From assembly GCA_964016885.1 (NCBI GenBank), contig OZ024741.1, positions 399,962,001-400,026,000 of the forward strand: a DNA stretch of 64,000 nucleotides, written 5' to 3'. The DNA comes from Eledone cirrhosa (Eukaryota). Both the position numbers and the translations under genes were made by a program. The notes under the pieces were generated by a model that saw only the letters and a program-made list of their open reading frames with translations, did no database searches and was not told where the DNA came from. Positions 2,261-57,319 of this stretch are shown here, piece after piece (the stretch's first letter is position 1; every line of letters starts with the position of its first letter).

Positions 2261-2384
2261 CCATAACATTCTATATTTTAATAGGAATAATTTAAAGTAA
2301 AAAAGGAGGAGGAGGAGGAGGAGGAGGAGGAGGAGGGGATAAGGGGCGATGGGAGGAATATGTGGAGGGGGAAGACAGACTCAC

Positions 2385-2596
2385 TTTCAGCTCTACTCGA
2401 CACTGTTGGTTTTTATCACAGGCGTAAGTATGATTTATGTGTACACGAAAACTTGGCTCAGAATTTTGACATTCTTGGAAGAGTGTGTATGTTCCTTTAC
2501 CAGGGAAATAGTAGTAGACGCCATCAAAAGTGACAATATGTCGTCCACCCCATGTAGTACACATAGAGTAACCCTCAGCATCAAATATTGATTCAA
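2385..2596 (-). CDS. Exon 9, von Willebrand factor type D domain (start)
   Basis: ESIFDAEGYSMCTTWGGRHIVTFDGVYYYFPGKGTYTLFQEC...CRVELK: VWD signature CxxWGxxHxxTFDGxxYxF; donor AAA|GTGAGT; phase 1-0. Confidence 0.95.
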
Positions 2597-3000
2597 CTGT
2601 AATAGAAAAAGGAATTTCGTGAAAATCTAAATTAATAAAGTAGTATATATATATATATATATATAAAACCAACAAAATTAAAACTATTACTTCTGTCAGC
2701 CAACTAACAGAGAACGAAGGACAAACACGGACAGAGATATGAACTGTCCTCTCTAAATATGCAAAAACATAATTTTTCTCCCTCCTTTTTATTATTCCTA
2801 TAAATATGCAACATAACTGCACCATGCATATCCGCAGTTGAAAAAGCACATAATGCTGAAATCGGTACCACTATTAAATGCAGAAATATCCACTTTATAA
2901 ATAAATGTTTTGATATTACACTGAAAGAATCTCTTCAGCATTTTCTACTGAAAAAACCTTTTTCCTCTCCACTATTTGCTTTTATATATATATATATGTA

Positions 3001-5149: not shown

Positions 5150-5192
<43 letters not shown>

Positions 5193-5438
5193 GAGGTTAT
5201 ATTTAATTTGCTGGGATTCAACAAGCTTAAACATTTTTATAACTGATATAAAGCACTCAACAGTTTAGTGGGGTAAATATACAATATATTAATAAATGGA
5301 AACTATATTTATAAAACCATAATTATTTTATTATATATATTTCAAGGGCAAACAAAGACAACCACTATCCAACGAATTTCAACCGTTGAGGTTGTCTTTT
5401 TTCCGGGTATGTCAATATTTATTTATAAAACAAATCTG

Positions 5439-5504
5439 TATTTTATCTGATGAAAGCGCACCATAATCTACCTTGGTTGCCCTTGAAATATATATAATAA
5501 AATA
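5439..5504 (+). ncRNA. Minimal type I hammerhead ribozyme in foldback element 5190-5548
   Basis: tattttat-CTGATGA-aagcgcacc..ggttgccctt-GAAA-tatata-TA/ataaaata; 8-bp perfect stem I. Confidence 0.8.
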
Positions 5505-5568
5505 ATTATGGTTTTATAAATATAGTTTCCATTTATTAATATATTGTGTATATGTGTGTGTGTCTGTA

Positions 5569-12081: not shown

Positions 12082-15000
12082 GTTATGCAAGAAATGCTTA
12101 GGATTATCCTAAATGCAGTAATGGTTAATTACTACACTAGATAGAGTCGATGTACGGTGAGGGGTTACTCAACGAGTTACAAAAGAACAGTTAAAGAAAC
12201 TTGGTTTCCGATTCTTCTATATTCCGGAGTGTAGATAAAGAATGATTAATAAAACAGGTAGACATCATAAAAATGTAATTTATTCCGAATGTTTACAAAT
12301 GTTTCTTTAGTAGTTACACAGCCTAGTCATGCTATATGCAAATTGGTAGTTATTAAATTGCAGATACTCAGTTTTCAAATGCTGTTCATCCTACCAATTC
12401 TTCAGAACAGAACGAATGGCGGAATTGTAAATTCCCTTGGATTTCTTAAAGGGAGTTATTAGGGAAGATAGATTAGAAAAGGAAGAGAGAAAGAAGAGGG
12501 GGGGGGGGATATGTAGGGGTCGGAGAAATGGGAGAGAGTGGTTTGAAGAAAACAGATAGCTTAATCCAAATGTTGTGATAGGGGTTCACGAGTGGTTTTA
12601 TTATACTGCTTACTCTCAAAGTGACAACTTAGGCATTGTGTTGATATTGTCAAGTTTGGAATTATTTATTGCCACAGAGAGCAAGTTAATAGATGTAGAG
12701 AAGGTGGGAGATAGACAGAGGGCGAGAGAGAGAGAGAGGGGACAGAAAAAAGTTAAGAGAAGGGGAAGGAAAGGCGATATACACCGAGTTGATAGTTGTA
12801 GTTTGCTGATCGTACTTAAGTATCCATTTATTACGATAAGCAAGGAACTGGTTAGTAGTGGGGGGGGGGTTATAGTTAGGAAGTAGTTATTGAGTGAAAT
12901 TAGTTAGCGAGAATGTGGTGTAGTAGTCTCTGGTTCATATTATGTTAAATTACTTTTATAGTGAGAAAATTAAAACTTCAGTTTGTGGTTGCAGTATAAC
13001 GATCGTTCGATTCTGTCATTTAGTAAGTTGTTTTTAGATTTCAAGATATAAAAGAGTTCAAGGTTGCATAATCTGCAGTACTTCAATCCACTCCGATATG
13101 CACTAGCGTACTATGGATAGGTTGGGATAACAGTTCAGGTGGGTTGTGTAATACCCGTCTCCCATTTGGTGGTTGGGAAGTTGATATTACGTTATGCCCA
13201 TCTGTTTCTAAAATAATTTTGTTTTGTAGTATTGTTTAATAATCGCTTTAAGTTAAGTTTTTATATGTGTGCTTCTAGGTTTGGTGCAGTGGAGTATGAT
13301 AACTTAACAGTCTTAGAGTTTAGAATTTTACTGTATTTATTGGAATTAGGGAAATGCTTGTTAATTAGCTTAAATTACGAAAGAGATAGTTTCGTACTAA
13401 TCGAAGCATTAAAAATGGGATTATACCAGATATACTTTCTACAACGCAATTTATTTGAGTTTGGTGATGATTTTCTATTATCAGTATGTCTGGTGGTACT
13501 GTGTGTGTGTGTTTGTATTCCTGTACTCCGATTACATATTCTTCGATTTCGTGTGTTGCTATGTGTGCTCTGGTGATTCTTATCAATGTATTCTATATTA
13601 TCCCGGTGGTCAGCATTCCCCAGTGCGTTATTATAATATTCTGCATGTTCGCTGAAAATCTGAGAGTTAGACGATAGGTGAGAGATGCTGAGAGAAATAC
13701 TACGAGGAACCGATTTGATCATGAAAAGTGGGTGATTCTAGTTGTAATTAATGGTTCTCGTTTATCTTGTGGAAGGGTCGTATCAGTCATGTTTTCAAAT
13801 TAAGAGTTACGTCTAGAAAATTCACTTCTTTAAGATTGTATTCGTACGTTATTTTCAGACTCAGTTCGCTAAAAGATTTCCTAATGTTTTTCCGTAGCCT
13901 TTCGATGTTTTGGTTATTTAAATTATTAACTAATAGAAGCGCGTCGTAGATTATTAAATTTTCCATGTAGTATGTGGGCTATGTAAATTCCCACAAGATC
14001 CGTAACCTCCGCTGAGTCGTTAGAGCCCATGGTGATGTCGAAGTTTGTGGGTCTGTCCCTACGTTCCCAGTAGCAGTTATCAAACCTGATAATAGTTTTC
14101 CTAGCCTCTAGAATAATATTAATTTCGTCCTCCGTTAGGTCGGAATTGACCTTGGCAAACGATAGGGCCTTACGTAAAGTACTGGGTGAGATCGAAGAGT
14201 AGTATTCATCTATATCGAATAAATATTGTATAAACTTAGACGACTTACTCTTGTTATTAACGTTATTAAACCAGCATATTGCTTCGCTGGTGTTGCCCCA
14301 TAATTTAATTTCTATTTTCTTTTTCAATTGAGTTATTACCCTGTCAGGTATATGCTTACTAATTTTTCCTATGTCTGATTTAGAAGGGCATATAAGTCTA
14401 ATCTTAGGGTTAGAGTCAAAATTTACCTTATGGTCCTTCAGATTAAAGGTGAGGGTTGCGGGTATAATCGGCTCGGTTCTATCGCCTATCTTGAGATTTT
14501 TCACTAATTTTATATGCTTCGTTGTTAATGTTCGTTAGTGTAGTTTCACTTGTTTTTCTATATTTCTTATGTAGTTCCTTGCGTATGAAGCTGTTGTATG
14601 TATCGATATCCATGGTATATACATTAGAGGTCTAACAAAAACTGCAATTGCCACCTACCCGAAAGATGTCCATTGAAGAATAAATGCCTAGAGTCCAACA
14701 TTGTTTATCAATACACTGTCGAATCGAGCGACCAGAAATGGTATTACGTCGGGTCTACCACTACCTCCTTTAAATCACGTTGGTATCGTCATCGATTTTC
14801 GATTAAACATCCTGAACACCGTTATGTAACCACACTCGTTAATAAGACCTGGCAACTCCGTGAATGCAACTGGCAGTTCACCTTAAAATGGGATAAATTA
14901 TCCAGCGCTAGTGCATATTGGAGTGGATTGAAGTACTACAGATTATGCAACCTTGAACTCTTTTATATCTTGAAATCTAAAAACAACTTACTAAATGACA

Positions 15001-15339
15001 GAATCGAACGATCGTTATACTGCAACCACAAACTGAAGGCTAAATTTTCTCACTATAAAAGTAATTTAACAATTGTTTCTACTTTAGGCACAAGGCCAGC
15101 AATTACCAGTGCATTACTGGTACATAATATGAACCCGAGACTACTACACCACTTTCTCGCTAACTAATTTCACTCAATAACTACTTCCTAACTATACCCC
15201 CCCCACACACACACACACACTACAGGCCAGTACCTTGCTTATCGTAATAAATGGATACTTAAGTATGATCAGCAAACTACAACTATCAACTCGGTGTATA
15301 TCGCCTTTCCTTCCCCTTCTCTTAGCTTTTTTCTGTCCC

Positions 15340-15397
<58 letters not shown>

Positions 15398-15595
15398 GTC
15401 TATCTCCCACCTTCTCCACATCGATTAACTTGCTCTCTGTGGTAGGATGAACAGCATTTGAAAATTGAGTATCTGCAAATTAATAACTACCAATTTGCAC
15501 ATAGCATGACTAGGCTGTGTAACTACTAAAGAAACATTTGTAAACACTCGGAATAAATTACCTTTTTATGATGCCTACCTGTTTTATTAATCATT

Positions 15596-15600
<5 letters not shown>
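12078..15600 (-). mobile_element. Decayed 5'-truncated Penelope-like retroelement (Hydra-clade-like) with inverted partial copy
   Basis: Minus-strand RT remnants (TSNVYTM.., LKDHKVNF..RLICPSKSDIGKISK, FDIDEYYSSI, FDITMGS, VNFLDVTLNL, IWYNP). Plus-strand arm from about 14631 encodes CNCHLPERCPLKNKCL + VYQY..YYVG..FKSRWYRH (GIY-YIG). About 14905-15600 is the reverse complement of about 12236-13110. Flanked by (TA)n. Confidence 0.9.
14631..15065 (+). pseudogene. PLE GIY-YIG endonuclease with upstream Cys-rich linker (in inverted arm)
   Basis: ORF 14673..15167: IVYQYTV..WYYVGST..FKSRWYRH..RLCNLE..CNH; a SINE fragment is inserted at about 15068-15122. Confidence 0.85.
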
Positions 15601-15670
<70 letters not shown>

Positions 15671-15926
15671 CTACAATGTGGCAGAAATATATATATATAA
15701 GTAGAAGGGATATTTAATTTGCTGGAAATACAACAAATATAAATGTTTATAACTGATTCAGAGCACTCGACAAGTTTCTGGAGTAAATATTCAATGATAT
15801 TAAATAAATGGAAACTATATTTATAAAACCATATTTATTCTATTATATATATTTCAAGGGTACCAAAAAAACTTTGGTACGCTTTCATCAGATAAAATAC
15901 AAAGAGTGTTTATAAAACACTCTTTG

Positions 15927-15990
15927 TATTTTATCTGATGAAAGCGTACCAAAGTTTTTTTGGTACCCTTGAAATATATATAATAGAATA
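15927..15990 (+). ncRNA. Minimal type I hammerhead (mirror on minus strand 15836-15899) in foldback about 15700-16000
   Basis: tattttat-CTGATGA-aagcgtaccaaag..tttggtaccctt-GAAA-tatata-TA/atagaata; same family as 5439-5504. Confidence 0.85.
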
Positions 15991-16025
15991 AATATATATA
16001 ATAGAACAAATATATATATATATAT

Positions 16026-16835
16026 ATTTGGATTTAATGCTCTGAAATAGCGATATATATGTGAAGACAAACATAGAATATTCGAAAATATTCTGTATGT
16101 TTATAATAAACATTTTGAAGACCTAATCGCTATAGAATAGAATACGTCACGTATTACAATTTGGGATTCTCGATAAAAGCAAAGGAAGTAACCTACGCGT
16201 TTCATTCTTGTTAGAAATCATCAGGGCTACATATCCAATGCTTTTATCGAGAACGACACAGCTAGAGACTTATAGAATACTTAGCTGTGTACAGGAACTG
16301 GTTTGAAAGAGCGGTAGCCGGTCCGGCAGAAATTAGAATTTGGATTTAATGCTCTGAAATAGCGATATATATGTGAAGACAAACAGAATATTCGAAAATA
16401 TTCTGTATGTTTATAATAAACATTTTGAAGACCTAATCGCTATAGAATAGAATACGATTAGGTCTTCAAAATGTTTATTATAAACATACAGAATATTTTC
16501 GAATATTCTATGTTTGTTTTCACATATATATCGCTATTTCAGAGCATTAAATCCAAATTCTAATTTCTGCCGGACCGGCTACCGCTCTTTCAAACCAGTT
16601 CCTGTACACAGCTAAGTATTCTATAAGTCTCTAGCTGTGTCGTTCTCGATAAAAGCATTGGATATGTAGCCCTGATGATTTCTAACAAGAATGAAGCGCG
16701 TAGGTTACTTCCCTTGCTTTTATCGAGAATCCCAAATTGTAATACGTGACGTATTCTATTCTATAGCGATTAGGTCTTCAAAATGTTTATTATAAACATA
16801 CAGAATATTTTCGAATATTCTATGTTTGTCTTCAT
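16026..16835. mobile_element. Tandem (312-bp period) plus inverted hammerhead element, retrozyme-like
   Basis: Sequence starting at 16026 recurs at 16338; whole block mirrored around about 16448; flanked by (TA)n. Confidence 0.85.
16188..16230 (-). ncRNA. Minimal type I hammerhead (plus-strand mirror 16666-16708 has GAAA>GAAG)
   Basis: gtagcc-CTGATGA-tttctaacaagaat-GAAA-cgcg-TA/ggttac; palindromic ACGCGT stem III. Confidence 0.85.
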
Positions 16836-17664
16836 ATATATATATATATTTCTGCGACCTTGTAGCTTCACATTAACTATACTAGTTTGGTTTTTTTCAA
16901 TTAAATCATGAGAATTATAAACTATAAACTTTTCAGACACTTGAAAACTAAGAAAGAGTCTTGCTCTTTCTTCGTGTAAACCATAACTGTTATAAAAATT
17001 AACTTTCACTTCATTACGTTCTGTTCTATTAATTCATTCATTTTCATTATATTTTATATTGATTAGAAACATTCCAGCTACAGTTCTCTCCTCAAACTCA
17101 TTTATACACATTCAGCTCTCCTCTCCAATACAAATAATTCCAACTCTTAATCCATTCATCAAAACCCTTAGATTTGCTGTAATTTTACATATTACTCTTC
17201 TCTGCCCTCCTCTTCTCTTTTCTCAACATTATCTTTCATTTTCTACTATTAATATCTTTAGTAATTACATTACCAACTAAACTTAGAAATCTTGACACCG
17301 TTGAAAGTCACTAATAGTTTTCGCGACATAGAAATAGATCTGTCAACCACCCACATTTGACACCTGAAAATGGAAACTAATGAGGAAATACTCTCCTATG
17401 ATGAGATCTATAGAAATATTTAAAACAATTAATTTATATATTTATTCCCATCCAGTCTTTTGTAACAGCCATTTAAATTTTGAGACAAATTCATGCCACA
17501 CTCTACTTTTCTGACACTAATTAACTAATTAACACATTAACTGAACTGACCAGTCTTTCCTTGTTAATATTGATTCCTGAATTAGGCATGAGGTCAGCAA
17601 ATTTGAGGCAGGGGGAAAGGGGGAGGGCAAAGTGGATTAAATCAACCCCAATACATGACTGAGA

Positions 17665-17915
17665 AGGAGCATGGCTTGGTGGTTAGAGCATTGGGCTTGC
17701 AATCAAAAGGTTGTGAGTTCAATTCTCGGACCGGGTGATGTGTTGTTTCATTGAACAAGACACTTTATTTCATATTGCTCCAGTTTACTCAGCTGTAGAA
17801 ATGAGATGATAGGAATGGGGTCCTTATCATTAAATTACCCAAGACACCTCCAATGAGATATACCTTGGAGGAGGCCAGCTAAACCTGCATAGGTGTGAGC
17901 TGTAATACACTCACA
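17665..17915 (+). mobile_element. tRNA-derived SINE, family B (copies also at about 7040-7200, 24700-24945 minus, 30440-30565 minus)
   Basis: A box tggcttggtggttagagc, B box gagttcaattc, core ttgaacaagacactttat. Confidence 0.8.
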
Positions 17916-23576: not shown

Positions 23577-26083
23577 CTGAAGTCAACAAAATATAATAAA
23601 TTATTGTGTACAGAGCTCAGGTGCACTACAACTCATCAAAGGTGTATGTATAGTACATAGAATAATTGTTTCTACTTTTGGCACAAGGCCAGCAATTACC
23701 CAGTACATTACTGGTACTTTATTTTATTGACCCCGTAAGGATGAAAGGCAAAGTTGACCTCGGCGGGATTTGAACTCAGAATAGAAAGGGCCGTAACTCT
23801 ATGTGTCAAAGCATGGTGTCCGACCCTCTATCGATACTGCCAATCCACTATAATGTAGAAATGTGAGGAAAGTGAACAGTGTATGAGTCATGATATACAC
23901 ACAGACACACACCATTACACACATATACCATTTATATAAGGAAAATGATTGTGTACAGTGCTTAGGTAGACTACAAGCCATCAAAGGGGCATGTATAGTT
24001 CATAGAATGATGTACATATGTCAGGAAAGGGAACAGAGTATGTGTCATGAGATACACACAGACACACTGACACACAGACAGACACACACCACGTGTGTGT
24101 GTGGTGGAGAGGGAATATCAGGTGGAGTGTTGGTGAATTTTGGGAAACATGGAAGATTTGAAGGATGCTTCAAGTTAGTAAATATTTGGGGTTTATATAC
24201 AGTGAATATATACTGTGGTCAGTGGTGCCTTAGCTCAATGGTTAAAGGACTTGGCCATAATTTAATGGATTCTACATAGTGGCTGCTGCCCAACTTTTCT
24301 GTTAAAGTAAAAGGAAGGAGAGGGAGCCTCAGACTCTACACCCCAGTCTTGGTGGTGTATCTTAGCTGTGCCCTGTGGATAAATGGCAAAAATACTGCCA
24401 TGTAGAACAGCCAGCGACACCCACTGCTTCAGTCATTCCACATCATAGGGCTCCCTCTTCGGTCAGGATGTACTCCTTCCAATTTTGCAGGGGAGAGCCG
24501 GAGTGACATTTGCTTAAATTCTTATAAGGTGGGGTGGGGAATCGGTAATTGTGTAGTGTATGTCAATAAGTATGGGATCTCTTGTAATGTTCTTTTTTTG
24601 TCATATATAATGTTTTTTAATGTAAAATACAATTATTAGATTCTCCAGCTGCTGTATCAATATAAATCACTTACCATAAAATTTCACCAAGGATAGATTG
24701 TGTGTGTGACAGCTCACACCTATGCAGGTTTAGCTGGCCTCCTCCAAGGTATATCTCGTTGGAGGTGTCTTGGGGGATTAATGATAGGGACCCCAGTCCT
24801 ATAATCTCATTCCTACAACTGAGTAAACTGGAGCAGCGTGAAATAAAATGTCTTGCTCAAGGAAACAACACATCACCCGGTGCGAGAATTGAACTCACAA
24901 CCTTTTGATTGCAAGCCCAATGCTCTAACCACTAAGCTATGCGCCAGGGATAGATTAGCAAAATTTAATAATCAGGGGGTGGGGTCTGAAAATTAACAAG
25001 TGTGGGTGGGGACGATTATGTTGTATATTAACTTAAAAAGCTAAAGAAGTAATTTTTGTTTAAACTTAACATGTTTTTATTAAATAATATATAAATATAT
25101 ATATACATAAATAACACTACAAATATAATTGTTTCTACTTTTGGCACAAAGCCAGCAATAATCCCAGTGTATTACTGGTACTTTATTCTATCGACCCCGT
25201 AAGGATGGAATGCAAAGTTAACCTCGGCGGGATTTGAACTCTGAACGTAAATATAATGTTGATAAACACAAATATAAATACATATAACAAATACAACCAT
25301 TGCCAGGAACTTCACAAAAAACAACACCAAAATATATGACTAGAATGAGAGAAAGAAAAAAAAGAAAAAAAGAGGGGATGCAAAACCAAAAACGAAAACG
25401 ACCATCAATTCACCACCAAATGTGACAATCGGCCGTACATCACAAGGGTAGAAGTAATATAAAATCTATAGTGATGAGTCAGTTTGTCTGGAATCTAATA
25501 AAATGATGCTGGTGCTGGTACCAAATAAAATTGTCACCCAATATTTGATGGGTCATAGGATCCCCATCATCATGTGATATCATCATCATCGTTTAACTTC
25601 CACACTAGCATATGTGATATCATCATCATCTTCCACACTAGCATGGGTTAGACGGGAGTTGTCCCACTTGAGGCAAGATTGGTCGAGTGACCATGTCTCG
25701 CTCATATAGGATATATGGAAGATAATTTAGCCTAGCAGACCCAGCTTCCTTTCAGTCATTGAGGGCAGTTGGAAGTTACAATTATAACCAACCCATGCAA
25801 ACGTGGAAAATTGGTAGTAAAAACGATGATGATAATATAGAAATAGATGGATATATAATAGGACACACAGGACAAAGACAATGGAAAAAACAATGGTAAA
25901 ATGGAAAGTCTCATCTCCTCAGTCAGCCCCTGGAGATCCCCACAGTTTTGAAAGGTTGCCTGGGGTTGACAGAGGAGATGGGGCCATCTGCTTATCTGTT
26001 GTTGTTTCCAATGTCTTTGTCCTGTGTGCTCCACTCTTTTGAAATTCATATTCGAAAACCTTAGCCAAGTGGACATCTTTTTG

Positions 26084-55310: not shown

Positions 55311-55613
55311 ATATATATATATTTATGCAGAGAACAATGAAATAGACAGAAGTCAGAGGTAGGTAGTTAATTAGTTTATTGTTTTATGATTGTTTCAGAA
55401 GGTTGATTGATCGAGGAAGATCGATGTATCGACTAGCTTGGTACTGGTTAGGCTCTTGTCCCCCTTTCTTGTGTGCCCTTGAGGCAAATAAAGAAATATA
55501 CCTATTTCTAGTTTTGAAATTCCTGCTCAGTCGATCAGGAAAGTCCTGATGGTTTCTTTTGAATGAAACATTTCTATATTAAACTTCGTATATATATATA
55601 CATATATATATAT

Positions 55614-55670
55614 ATGAGATTCCTGATGATTTCTAAAGAATGAAACAGTTCTAGTCCTGTAGAATCTCAT
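55614..55670 (+). ncRNA. Canonical type I hammerhead ribozyme with full stem III
   Basis: atgagattc-CTGATGA-tttctaaagaat-GAAA-cag ttctagtc ctg-TA/gaatctcat; 9-bp stem I, GUA site; partial decayed copy at about 55546-55570; tail runs to (TA)n at 55751. Confidence 0.9.
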
Positions 55671-57319
55671 CTATATTAAAACTTTTATACTCTGCTATGT
55701 ATTGAGTACCTTACTTACTGTGGTTACCTCCGATTCAACCCGGAATAACGTATATATATATATATATATATACATATAGCTTAGATGTGTCTATGCACAT
55801 ATAAGCTTGCATATCTGATGAGATATTGAAAGAGTTGGCCCCGTCACCTTGATTGTACCCGGAGCAGATTGATATTGAAACAATTGTAATATGTAAATAA
55901 AGTTTATACATATGTTGCAACCTTGACTCCGACTCTTTTAAATCTATTTACACTCTGCACACTACAGCGGTAACTCTGGAATACAACCCAAATGAAATGG
56001 ACCTTGTAACAGCATTGAGTGCTTCGAACAGTGCACCGCCTGTAACTGTCATTACACACCTAACCAACATATATTTATATGTATACATCATCATCATCAT
56101 CATCATCACCGTTTTACGTCCGTTCTTCCACGCTAGCATGGGTTAGACGGGTTGTCCTGTTGTGGGCAGTGTCTGGTCGGCTGACCATGCCTTGCTCATA
56201 CAGGAACTGATCTGGCTTGATTTCTACAGCTGGATGCCCTTCCTAACACCAACCTCATTTACAGTGAGTGCTGGGTGCTTTTTCGTGGCGCCTACACGTC
56301 CACTTTACAGTGTGGGCTGGGTGCTTTTTTGCCGTGGCACCTCCACGACCACCTTACGGTGGGGGGGGGGGGGGGGGCATATTGTTTATATGCTTCAGCA
56401 TGTACCCATGGGAGGTCGGGTACCCTGTATTACTGCGTGACACACATGTATATAATCATGATAGTCAATAGCTTATGCAGGAATAGAAATTTGTGCAAAA
56501 ACCAAAGCAAAATATTTGTTATATATCAATAAATAACAAAGATCCTGAACATCTGGATATTTGAGTGACAAAATAAACAGAGGTTAGCAAAAATAAAATA
56601 ATATAAATTGATTTCTTCTGTAGGGTATAAACATAACATCAGATATATTAGGGGAGGAGAAACGTGATTGCATGATGTTCGTGCCCCTCCTAAGTGCATT
56701 AGCAATGTCTTCTCATCTTCTTTGTCCACTTATTCCTGAAAGGGCCATGGGGGCAGAGTCCTCAAACATTCCTTCTAGCAGGTTCTGTCAGAAGCAACCT
56801 GTCAGCTAGATCTCCAAGTGAGGCCAGCCAAGTTCATGGATGTTATCCAACCATCTTGCTGAGCATCTACACCTGGATCTGCTGCCAGTTGGTTTTGCCT
56901 GTGAAATCTGTCCGATGATGCTTTCCTGTGATATTCAAACCACAAGCTCATAGTTTGGGAGCTGGATCCCTAAGCAAGACTAGCCAAGCTCATGAATGTT
57001 ATCCAACCATCTTGCTCAGGGTCTACCCCTGAGTCTCCTGCCCGTTGGTTCTTACAAAGCATTAACAATATAAGAGAAGTAATTAAAATAGAATTACATA
57101 TCAAGAAAACTGATAATTCAGAACATGTTGGAAGCTTTGTTCTGCTCTACCGTTCTTGTATCACAGATTTAACATGGCAGTAGATTCTAAATTCTCTGAG
57201 AGAAATGGAAGTTTGTGTTATATATGTTTTTTCCCAAAAGCAACATTGTTGCTTTTGTTAAGACCACCAGCAAAATAAGCAGCGATACACACACACACAC
57301 ATATATATATATATATCTA

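Follow-up and report, generated by a model that had tools for sequence, protein, structure and literature searches.

Head-to-head retrozyme insertions in Eledone cirrhosa suggest priming of reverse transcription from both ends of the target break on one, probably circular, RNA

The window analysed here, a stretch of 64,000 nucleotides, carries at positions 16026-16834 an insertion composed of two arms of a putative retrozyme unit (Table 1). The first-pass annotation had described a 312-bp unit which is both tandemly repeated and inverted at 16026..16835, and this was borne out: an arm of 1.38 units is followed by an inverted arm of 1.22 units. The claimed recurrence of 16026 at 16338 was found as well, since self-comparison identified 16338-16456 as a second copy of 16026-16146 with 98.3% identity, a spacing of 312 and one 2-nt deletion. 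The reverse complement of the first unit is located at 16559-16843 (98.9%), and a part of it recurs at 16452-16558. Unit positions are numbered from the first base 3′ of the predicted ribozyme cut. The outer 3′ ends of both arms run into (TA)n, so that any target-site duplication would be hidden. The arms differ at four sites (unit 11, 119-120, 128 and 306), each change being private to one copy, and both carry 30C, 70A, 279G, 280C and 296C; 280C is exclusive to this locus within the first sample of 34 loci described below.

Table 1. Features of the two-armed insertion and of the neighbouring autonomous element, in window coordinates.
Feature	Position	Strand	Description
Reverse transcriptase (RT) part of Hydra-clade element	13926-14534	(-)	
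GIY-YIG part of Hydra-clade element	14628-15167	(+)	
(TA)n target run, left	16010..16025	(.)	
Left arm	16026..16456	(-)	431 nt = 1.38 tandem units of the 312-bp retrozyme (self-comparison)
Left arm ends			outer 3′ = unit 168 ('long' end); inner 5′ = unit 48
36-nt 'tail' (unit 133-168)	16026..16061	(-)	at left outer end; right outer end without tail
Long internal stem, ~16 bp (unit 12-27 with 251-266)	16162..16255	(-)	encloses the hammerhead in the predicted fold
Type I hammerhead motif	16188..16230	(-)	intact core, stem III a palindrome; cut predicted between 16194 and 16193
Head-to-head junction	16455..16456	(.)	2-nt overlap CG, compatible with both arms
Right arm	16455..16834	(+)	380 nt = 1.22 units, inverted relative to left arm
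Right arm ends			inner 5′ = unit 65; outer 3′ = unit 132 ('short' end)
Second hammerhead copy	16666..16708	(+)	A>G at 16696: GAAA to GAAG (position A15.1)
(TA)n target run, right	16835..16848	(.)	directly after last unit base 16834

Several other elements were observed in the window. A decayed autonomous Hydra-clade Penelope-like element with an internal inversion occupies 13133-15600 and ends in a TA run at 15599. A second head-to-head family, whose hammerhead-like core lacks stem II, is represented at 15700-15995 and 5190-5548; the copy at 15700-15995 has a near-perfect 81-bp palindrome at its centre and unequal arms ending in TA runs. As the retrozyme occupies the TA run at the end of this copy, three Penelope-type insertions are chained via TA runs. 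Both nested elements are bracketed by a 32-nt inverted match (15668-15699 / 16837-16868, 94%, about half TA), the right-hand part of which (16837-16868) was absent from all other fetched loci. Inverted flank similarity was also seen at loci L037, L044, L053 and L061, which could point to preferred insertion at cruciform-forming targets. Three more hammerhead-like motifs, two of them with a stem II like that of the 312-bp unit, lie at 55546-55900, and related copies occur at L078, L130, L136 and L140. Two tRNA-like heads, probably of SINEs, were found at 24882-24939 (-) by Rfam and at 17670-17730 by eye. An open frame at 2292-2870 (-) presumably encodes a von Willebrand factor type D-like stretch and is possibly an exon of the host gene surrounding this region.

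The predicted minus-strand hammerhead (16230-16188) comprises a stem I of 6 bp with one G.U pair, the CUGAUGA box, a stem II of 4 bp with a basal U.U, the GAAA box, a stem III formed by the palindrome ACGCGU, and a GUA cut site. The assertion of the first-pass annotation that this copy is intact while the plus-strand copy has GAAA changed to GAAG proved correct, with the change at 16696; it is private to one of the two copies at this locus and was found in none of the rest of the 34 loci. The predicted fold of the unit has a z-score of -5.9, and none of 100 shuffled sequences folded equally well. A 31-nt pattern of the hammerhead core has 5,199 exact matches in the genome (2,654 forward and 2,545 reverse) compared with 0 for a reversed control. 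These two results indicate that the hammerhead unit is not due to chance. At the Rfam gathering score no hammerhead was retrieved from the window, the sole match being the tRNA-like sequence at 24882-24939. The two motifs reached 20.4 and 17.1 bits against Hammerhead_HH9, below the cut-off of 52; matches to microRNA families, obtained with an E-value threshold, were also below cut-off and were dismissed as reflections of hairpin shape. With Rfam scores below cut-off, the ribozyme call rests on manual anatomy together with stem I pairing across haplotypes. This pairing is kept: the closing pair is C-G at 16026-16834, U.G in 30 loci and U-A in haplotypes with a changed partner, although these pair changes come from related loci and are not independent events. 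The palindromic stem III is predicted to be able to pair between two copies of the unit.

The unit has a GC content of 35% and is non-coding, the longest stop-free frames of the circularised unit being 43 codons in sense and 56 codons in antisense orientation. A frame scan of the circularised 312-bp unit identified no open reading frame and hence no RT plus GIY-YIG frame; an ATG overlaps the hammerhead core, and its frame comprises 24 codons. An LTR layout was absent. These properties resemble metazoan non-LTR retrozymes (PMC7229834, PMC7761336, bioRxiv 10.64898/2026.07.22.740005; see also PMC4209133), which consist of low-GC, non-coding tandem units of about 300 bp, contain in each unit a type I hammerhead whose helix III is short and palindromic, are dispersed as dimers to 22-mers and co-occur with Penelope-like elements. 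The U.U at the base of helix II is shared with HHR_Amex2 of axolotl, and the size range of dispersed tandem repeats used to recognise non-LTR retrozymes (150-450 bp) includes the 312-bp family. Judged by every sequence feature tested, the 312-bp family consists of non-LTR retrozymes with a Penelope-type integration footprint. Retrozyme circles exist in coral, mussel and axolotl (PMC7229834). A difference concerns the arrangement: metazoan non-LTR retrozymes are described as head-to-tail in these sources, while most loci here have two head-to-head arms with fixed unequal ends in (TA)n. The word 'inverted' is absent from the main text of PMC7229834 and, as far as the text of PMC7761336 and bioRxiv 10.64898/2026.07.22.740005 was accessible, occurs there in reference titles only.

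Two samples of the family were compiled. The first, by similarity, derives from a DNA search of the 3.0-Gb genome with 152 matches from 39 scored of 386 candidates, and comprises the locus at 16026-16834 and the 33 other loci containing those matches. The second, by position, comprises the first 11 loci with an exact 31-nt core on contig C1. Two arms were found at 40 of the 45 loci (32/34 by similarity, 8/11 by position), head-to-head in every case, and the remaining five loci are single-armed. The shape of the 16026-16834 insertion is therefore the normal product of its family, and this locus is, on its own, an ordinary, slightly decayed member. Unit length is 312 bp, ranging from 308 to 312 bp across subfamilies, and the arms at the 45 loci extend over 0.2-22 units. 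Loci L180-L188 represent a younger 310-bp subfamily which is nearly devoid of singletons and has longer arms of up to 19 units; L185, which has a 310-bp locus 1.5 kb away, is fixed for a 308-bp variant across both its arms.

The self-comparison and the comparison with other copies, as proposed in the first-pass annotation, confirmed the structure and yielded 39 other two-armed head-to-head loci. They also bear on the explanation that the inversion is an assembly or amplification chimera. Among the pieces listed for public runs X1, X2, X3 and X22 on 16400-16510, none bridges the joint at 16456, and the individual from which these runs were obtained may differ from that of the assembly; the unique right flank 16859-17200 is present in X1 and X2 with zero differences, and a very abundant related family was seen in X1, X2, X4 and X21. 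Against a chimera, the arms differ at the four sites given above, each private to one copy, the outer ends are asymmetric in the pattern of the family, unlike those of a fold-back chimera, and 39 other loci show the same build, each with its own junction. A chimera at 16026-16834 is very unlikely, to the point of being hardly credible. The view that one insertion records both reiteration and inversion is supported by the same shape at 40/45 loci and by the single haplotype of both arms (see below).

The most informative feature, absent from the first-pass annotation, is the presence of two different outer ends. These ends occupy two zones of the unit, at about 165-172, in most cases 168, and at about 125-141, in most cases 132, the short-end zone being the part with the internal (UA)4 tract of the unit. 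One long and one short end were found in 35 of 36 scorable two-armed loci (binomial against 0.5, p = 5e-10), the exception being L050 with two long ends; four two-armed loci with one arm ending elsewhere (L031, L035, L056 and L060) were left out of this count. The spacing of 36 nt between 168 and 132 matches the 'tail' of Penelope elements; in the 312-bp family this tail is one-sided in 35/36 loci. In both arms the strand that continues the target 3′ end is the antisense (cDNA) strand, so both arms can be first-strand cDNA.

Comparable architectures are known for autonomous elements of the Penelope/Poseidon, Neptune, Hydra and Naiad groups (PMC8557442, PMC3846280), whose insertions include a partial tandem and an inverted, 5′-truncated copy at the 5′ end in head-to-head orientation. 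Endonuclease-containing Penelope-like elements likewise have a tail of 30-40 bp, often at one end only, and a hammerhead that precedes the 3′ end by about 130-170 nt; Hydra and Naiad target (TA)n as the 312-bp family does, and Neptune has a microsatellite bias (PMC8557442, PMC3846280). In contrast to these elements, the 312-bp unit is of pLTR size, has no open reading frame and repeats many times in both arms, and the ends of those autonomous elements that were checked showed no sequence match to it. The link between tandem and inverted classes drawn in the first-pass annotation stands with respect to a single event, but is not new for Penelope-like elements (PMC8557442, PMC3846280). The head-to-head inverted copies and tails of autonomous elements have been read as self-priming (PMC3846280), and the origin of tandem and inverted Penelope-like insertions has been called undefined (PMC8557442).

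Biochemical data are available for PAc, the Poseidon protein of Anolis (PMC11167929). The purified enzyme, a predicted dimer, cleaves AT-rich DNA on both strands and extends each of them; it begins reverse transcription at two adjacent RNA sites which define the tail. The two start sites spaced by the tail and an ATG overlapping the hammerhead core are shared with the 312-bp family. In vitro, however, start-site use by PAc was the same on both strands, whereas each site was used once in 35/36 loci here, and the accessible text of PMC11167929 makes no claim of two-site coupling within one insertion.

At their inner ends the arms behave differently. The 54 inner ends of 27 loci are distributed uniformly round the unit (KS p = 0.39), and 2 of them lie within 3 nt of the cut site, where 1.2 are expected; a cut linear monomer as template was rejected on account of this missing pile-up. 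The distance between the paired inner ends of a locus is uniform too, meaning that they are unrelated (27 loci, KS p = 0.41), and in 2 of the 27 loci they are at most 20 nt apart compared with 3.5 expected. The 17-nt offset at 16026-16834 is at chance level. Most arms exceed one unit (46/52), arm lengths are uncorrelated (rho -0.07), and the arm with the long end is the longer one in 15 of 26 loci and the shorter one in 11. Random, unrelated inner ends and uncorrelated arm lengths together exclude a linear cut monomer as template and a fold-back self-copy as the rule.

The latter explanation assumes that a target-primed cDNA folds back, or that an antisense template primes itself, and that after self-copying an endonuclease resolves the hairpin, removing 36 nt at one of the ends. 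It would agree with the 17-nt distance and the 2-nt overlap of the inner ends at 16026-16834, with the symmetric locus L054 and with the presence of one haplotype per locus, for which self-copying accounts; moreover, self-priming has been argued from junction palindromes (PMC3846280) and the tail has been ascribed to endonuclease resolution (PMC8557442). Yet a self-copy cannot exceed its template, while the long-end arm is longer in 15/26 loci and shorter in 11, and the inner ends are unrelated (uniform, p = 0.41; 2/27 within 20 nt). For this family fold-back is already largely refuted and we consider it improbable; the 'foldback' class of the first-pass annotation is accordingly not upheld by the unrelated inner ends, the fact that either arm may be longer and the uncorrelated lengths.

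Among 36 junctions, 2 contain inserts of more than 200 nt, 7 were scored negative because a short insert or a mutation lies close to the joint, and 27 have neither. Six overlaps of 7-26 nt within the unit's own inverted repeats were set aside as over-counting, leaving 21 junctions for the test. An overlap of at least 1 nt was present in 16/21 (null 0.47, p = 0.006) and one of at least 2 nt in 10/21 (null 0.18, p = 0.002). Two independent junctions, in L044 and L183, join unit 253 to unit 13, which are the arms of the unit's internal inverted repeat.

Sequence variants indicate that both arms of a locus share a haplotype. Considering sites covered at least twice per locus in the first sample, 32 variants are shared by every copy, 113 are confined to a single copy and 9 occur in some of the copies. 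Discordance between the arms at informative sites is limited to 4 of 40 loci, whereas permutations gave 32.4 (minimum 23); for the 312-nt subfamily alone the values are 4 of 33 loci and 24.6 expected (minimum 18). Each of the four discordant loci differs at one site, three of them at the hypervariable position 190. At this position T>A affects a single copy in 4 loci, T>C was seen in 2 and the 310-bp subfamily has A; the hypervariability may be a consensus error. A non-majority allele is common to both arms in 27 loci, and each of the 20 complete units in the two arms of L185 has a 2-nt deletion which was found in no other locus of its sample. A varied linear multimer as template would give minor alleles mirrored at equal distance from the start in both arms, which was observed for 0 of 21 multi-copy alleles. 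No indel was found in 260 passes over the ribozyme cut site, and template jumping at this site was rejected on this ground. It seems that inherited variation goes through one monomer, a bottleneck which a circle would impose.

Other templates have to be weighed at this point. Both target ends might prime cDNA on an uncut linear multimer of a uniform donor, or on two RNAs from the same donor held by a protein dimer, with no circle involved. Given young arrays of 12-13 identical or near-identical units (L187, L188), uniform arms would also arise if such a donor were transcribed into linear RNA that stays uncut, and uniform arrays of 12-20 units exist. In vitro, PAc mainly used uncut RNA, and mutating the ribozyme did not prevent insertion (PMC11167929). 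Such a template accounts equally well for the head-to-head arrangement, for inner ends at random positions and for cut sites free of indels. It is less easily reconciled with new variants fixed in every unit of both arms (32 sites in the first sample, and the L185 deletion) and with the 0/21 mirrored minor alleles, which require a bottleneck of one monomer somewhere in the cycle; the version with two free RNAs does not by itself couple long with short ends (35/36). We regard templates of this kind as unlikely, while giving them appreciable weight.

Alternatively, a short single copy was inserted, and unequal crossover, inverted duplication at cruciform-prone TA runs and gene conversion built the rest at the DNA level. 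Repeated alleles in non-adjacent units of the long arms of L082, L185 and L186 do point to duplication or conversion after insertion, so that the longest arms need not be primary products, and the inverted flank similarity at four loci and the 32-nt inverted flank match mentioned above would be in line with such events. Inverted duplication, however, would give equal outer ends and mirrored flanks, whereas the ends are unequal at two fixed sites in 35/36 loci and most flanks are unrelated. Furthermore, 125 singletons in 75,687 bases remain unhomogenised, and loci in which all units are identical (L180, L188) are already multi-unit in both arms. A purely DNA-level origin is thus quite improbable.

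We favour, as a reasonably likely reading of these sequences, a single retrozyme insertion in which a Penelope-like enzyme would prime reverse transcription from both ends of the target break on one, probably circular, RNA. Priming from both ends as such appears highly probable, and a circle as the template moderately so overall. According to this model, a tandem locus would be transcribed, its hammerheads would cut, likely as dimers, and the monomer would be ligated to a circle. A Penelope-like RT/GIY-YIG protein, likely a dimer, would bind the circle and cut both strands of (TA)n. One target 3′ end would then start cDNA at about unit 168 with little pairing, and the other would pair with the internal (UA)4 tract (132-141) and start cDNA there. 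Both polymerases would circle round the RNA, displacing the strand ahead, until a random stop ends synthesis after about 0.4 to 6 turns. Because the arms are copies of one sequence, the template, whether circle or multimer, has to be copied with strand displacement, which we assume for polymerases 36 nt apart. The 3′ ends of the cDNAs would anneal by microhomology of 1-4 nt, sometimes via the unit's own inverted repeat, and each would template the second strand of the other. Point mutations, such as GAAA>GAAG, and some expansion of long-arm arrays would have occurred later.

The proposed reaction is related to the twin priming of LINE-1, which is said to have been described by Ostertag and Kazazian in 2001: both target ends reportedly prime cDNA on one RNA, the second by internal pairing, and the cDNAs are said to join by microhomology, leaving a 5′ inversion. 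The two segments there reportedly correspond to separate parts of a linear RNA, and inversion is said to be a minority outcome. In contrast, the arms described here copy the same sequence, each usually for more than one unit, and inversion is the majority outcome.

The autonomous element that would supply the enzyme was sought in the same genome, in which candidate enzymes are abundant. The Hydra-clade family of the window element, assigned by its RWK, DKT and CxCx5C motifs as in PMC8557442, yielded 57,016 first-look candidates, and intact frames of 782-786 aa occur elsewhere in the genome. Among 18 loci examined, all four two-armed ones with both ends covered (L073, L076, L078 and L081) have one long and one short outer end; the offset of 142 nt is far above the 30-40-nt tail in print. 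Besides this tail of 142 nt, the ends of the family do not match the 312-bp unit. Its pLTR contains a hammerhead-like core that is only partial. A search with the GIY-YIG domain (PF01541) gave 10,597 first-look candidates, of which, as of the Hydra candidates, a small part was examined, and revealed several families with a Neptune-like CxxxxCxxC linker, a label based on the motifs in PMC8557442 alone. BLAST comparison of 18 Hydra-family and 50 GIY-YIG loci with respect to an autonomous partner returned only separate retrozyme copies. The 3′ regions of 20 loci bearing open reading frames, which as printed mostly run into TA, showed no similarity to the 312-bp unit above that of 30 shuffled controls, a test in which 1/20 is possible by chance.

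A sister retrozyme family (L083-L097, L043, L045, L076 and L099) with a unit of about 316 bp and about 70% similarity to the 312-bp unit was also observed; its hammerhead is more canonical, 3,343 first-look candidates were obtained, and (CA)n targets are also compatible with its short end. Long and short ends were found together at 3 of 4 loci, and these ends are homologous to those of the 312-bp family. The occurrence of one long and one short end in both the Hydra family and the sister retrozyme suggests that this rule may be general. More tentatively, and with rather less assurance than for the retrozyme itself, Penelope-type retrotransposition could be twin-primed by design, with a dimer holding one circle, two start sites used once each at the two ends of a broken TA run, synthesis in both directions out of one template, and second-strand synthesis at no extra cost when the cDNAs meet.

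Tandem-plus-inverted insertions, the tail and the circle model are already published. In particular, tandem cDNA templated on circles by Penelope-like enzymes has been proposed for retrozymes (PMC7229834, Cervera and de la Pena 2020), and a recent account states that the mechanism of retrozyme mobility 'remains to be elucidated' (bioRxiv 10.64898/2026.07.22.740005). A literature search, which left subscription work including older Penelope reviews mostly uncovered, retrieved no report of head-to-head retrozymes, start-site coupling or twin priming of Penelope-like elements, and the accessible text of PMC8490949 contains nothing on these subjects. The counted rules and the reading as twin priming on one template appear to be new.

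The question of which enzyme moves animal retrozymes, and from which template, has so far been answered by proposal only, as far as the accessible text of PMC7229834 shows. The 312-bp family is short, young and numerous, so that every locus is a countable record of one reaction, and it provides three testable rules: each insertion has one long and one short start, each carries a single haplotype, and its two arms stop randomly and independently of each other. If the proposed mechanism is true, the tandem, inverted and one-sided-tail features of Penelope-like elements would be explained by a single mechanism, and the insertions would constitute genomic evidence for retrozyme circles as a reverse-transcribed intermediate moved by Penelope-like enzymes. 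The family also predicts a genome seeded with long inverted repeats, which could form double-stranded RNA if transcribed.
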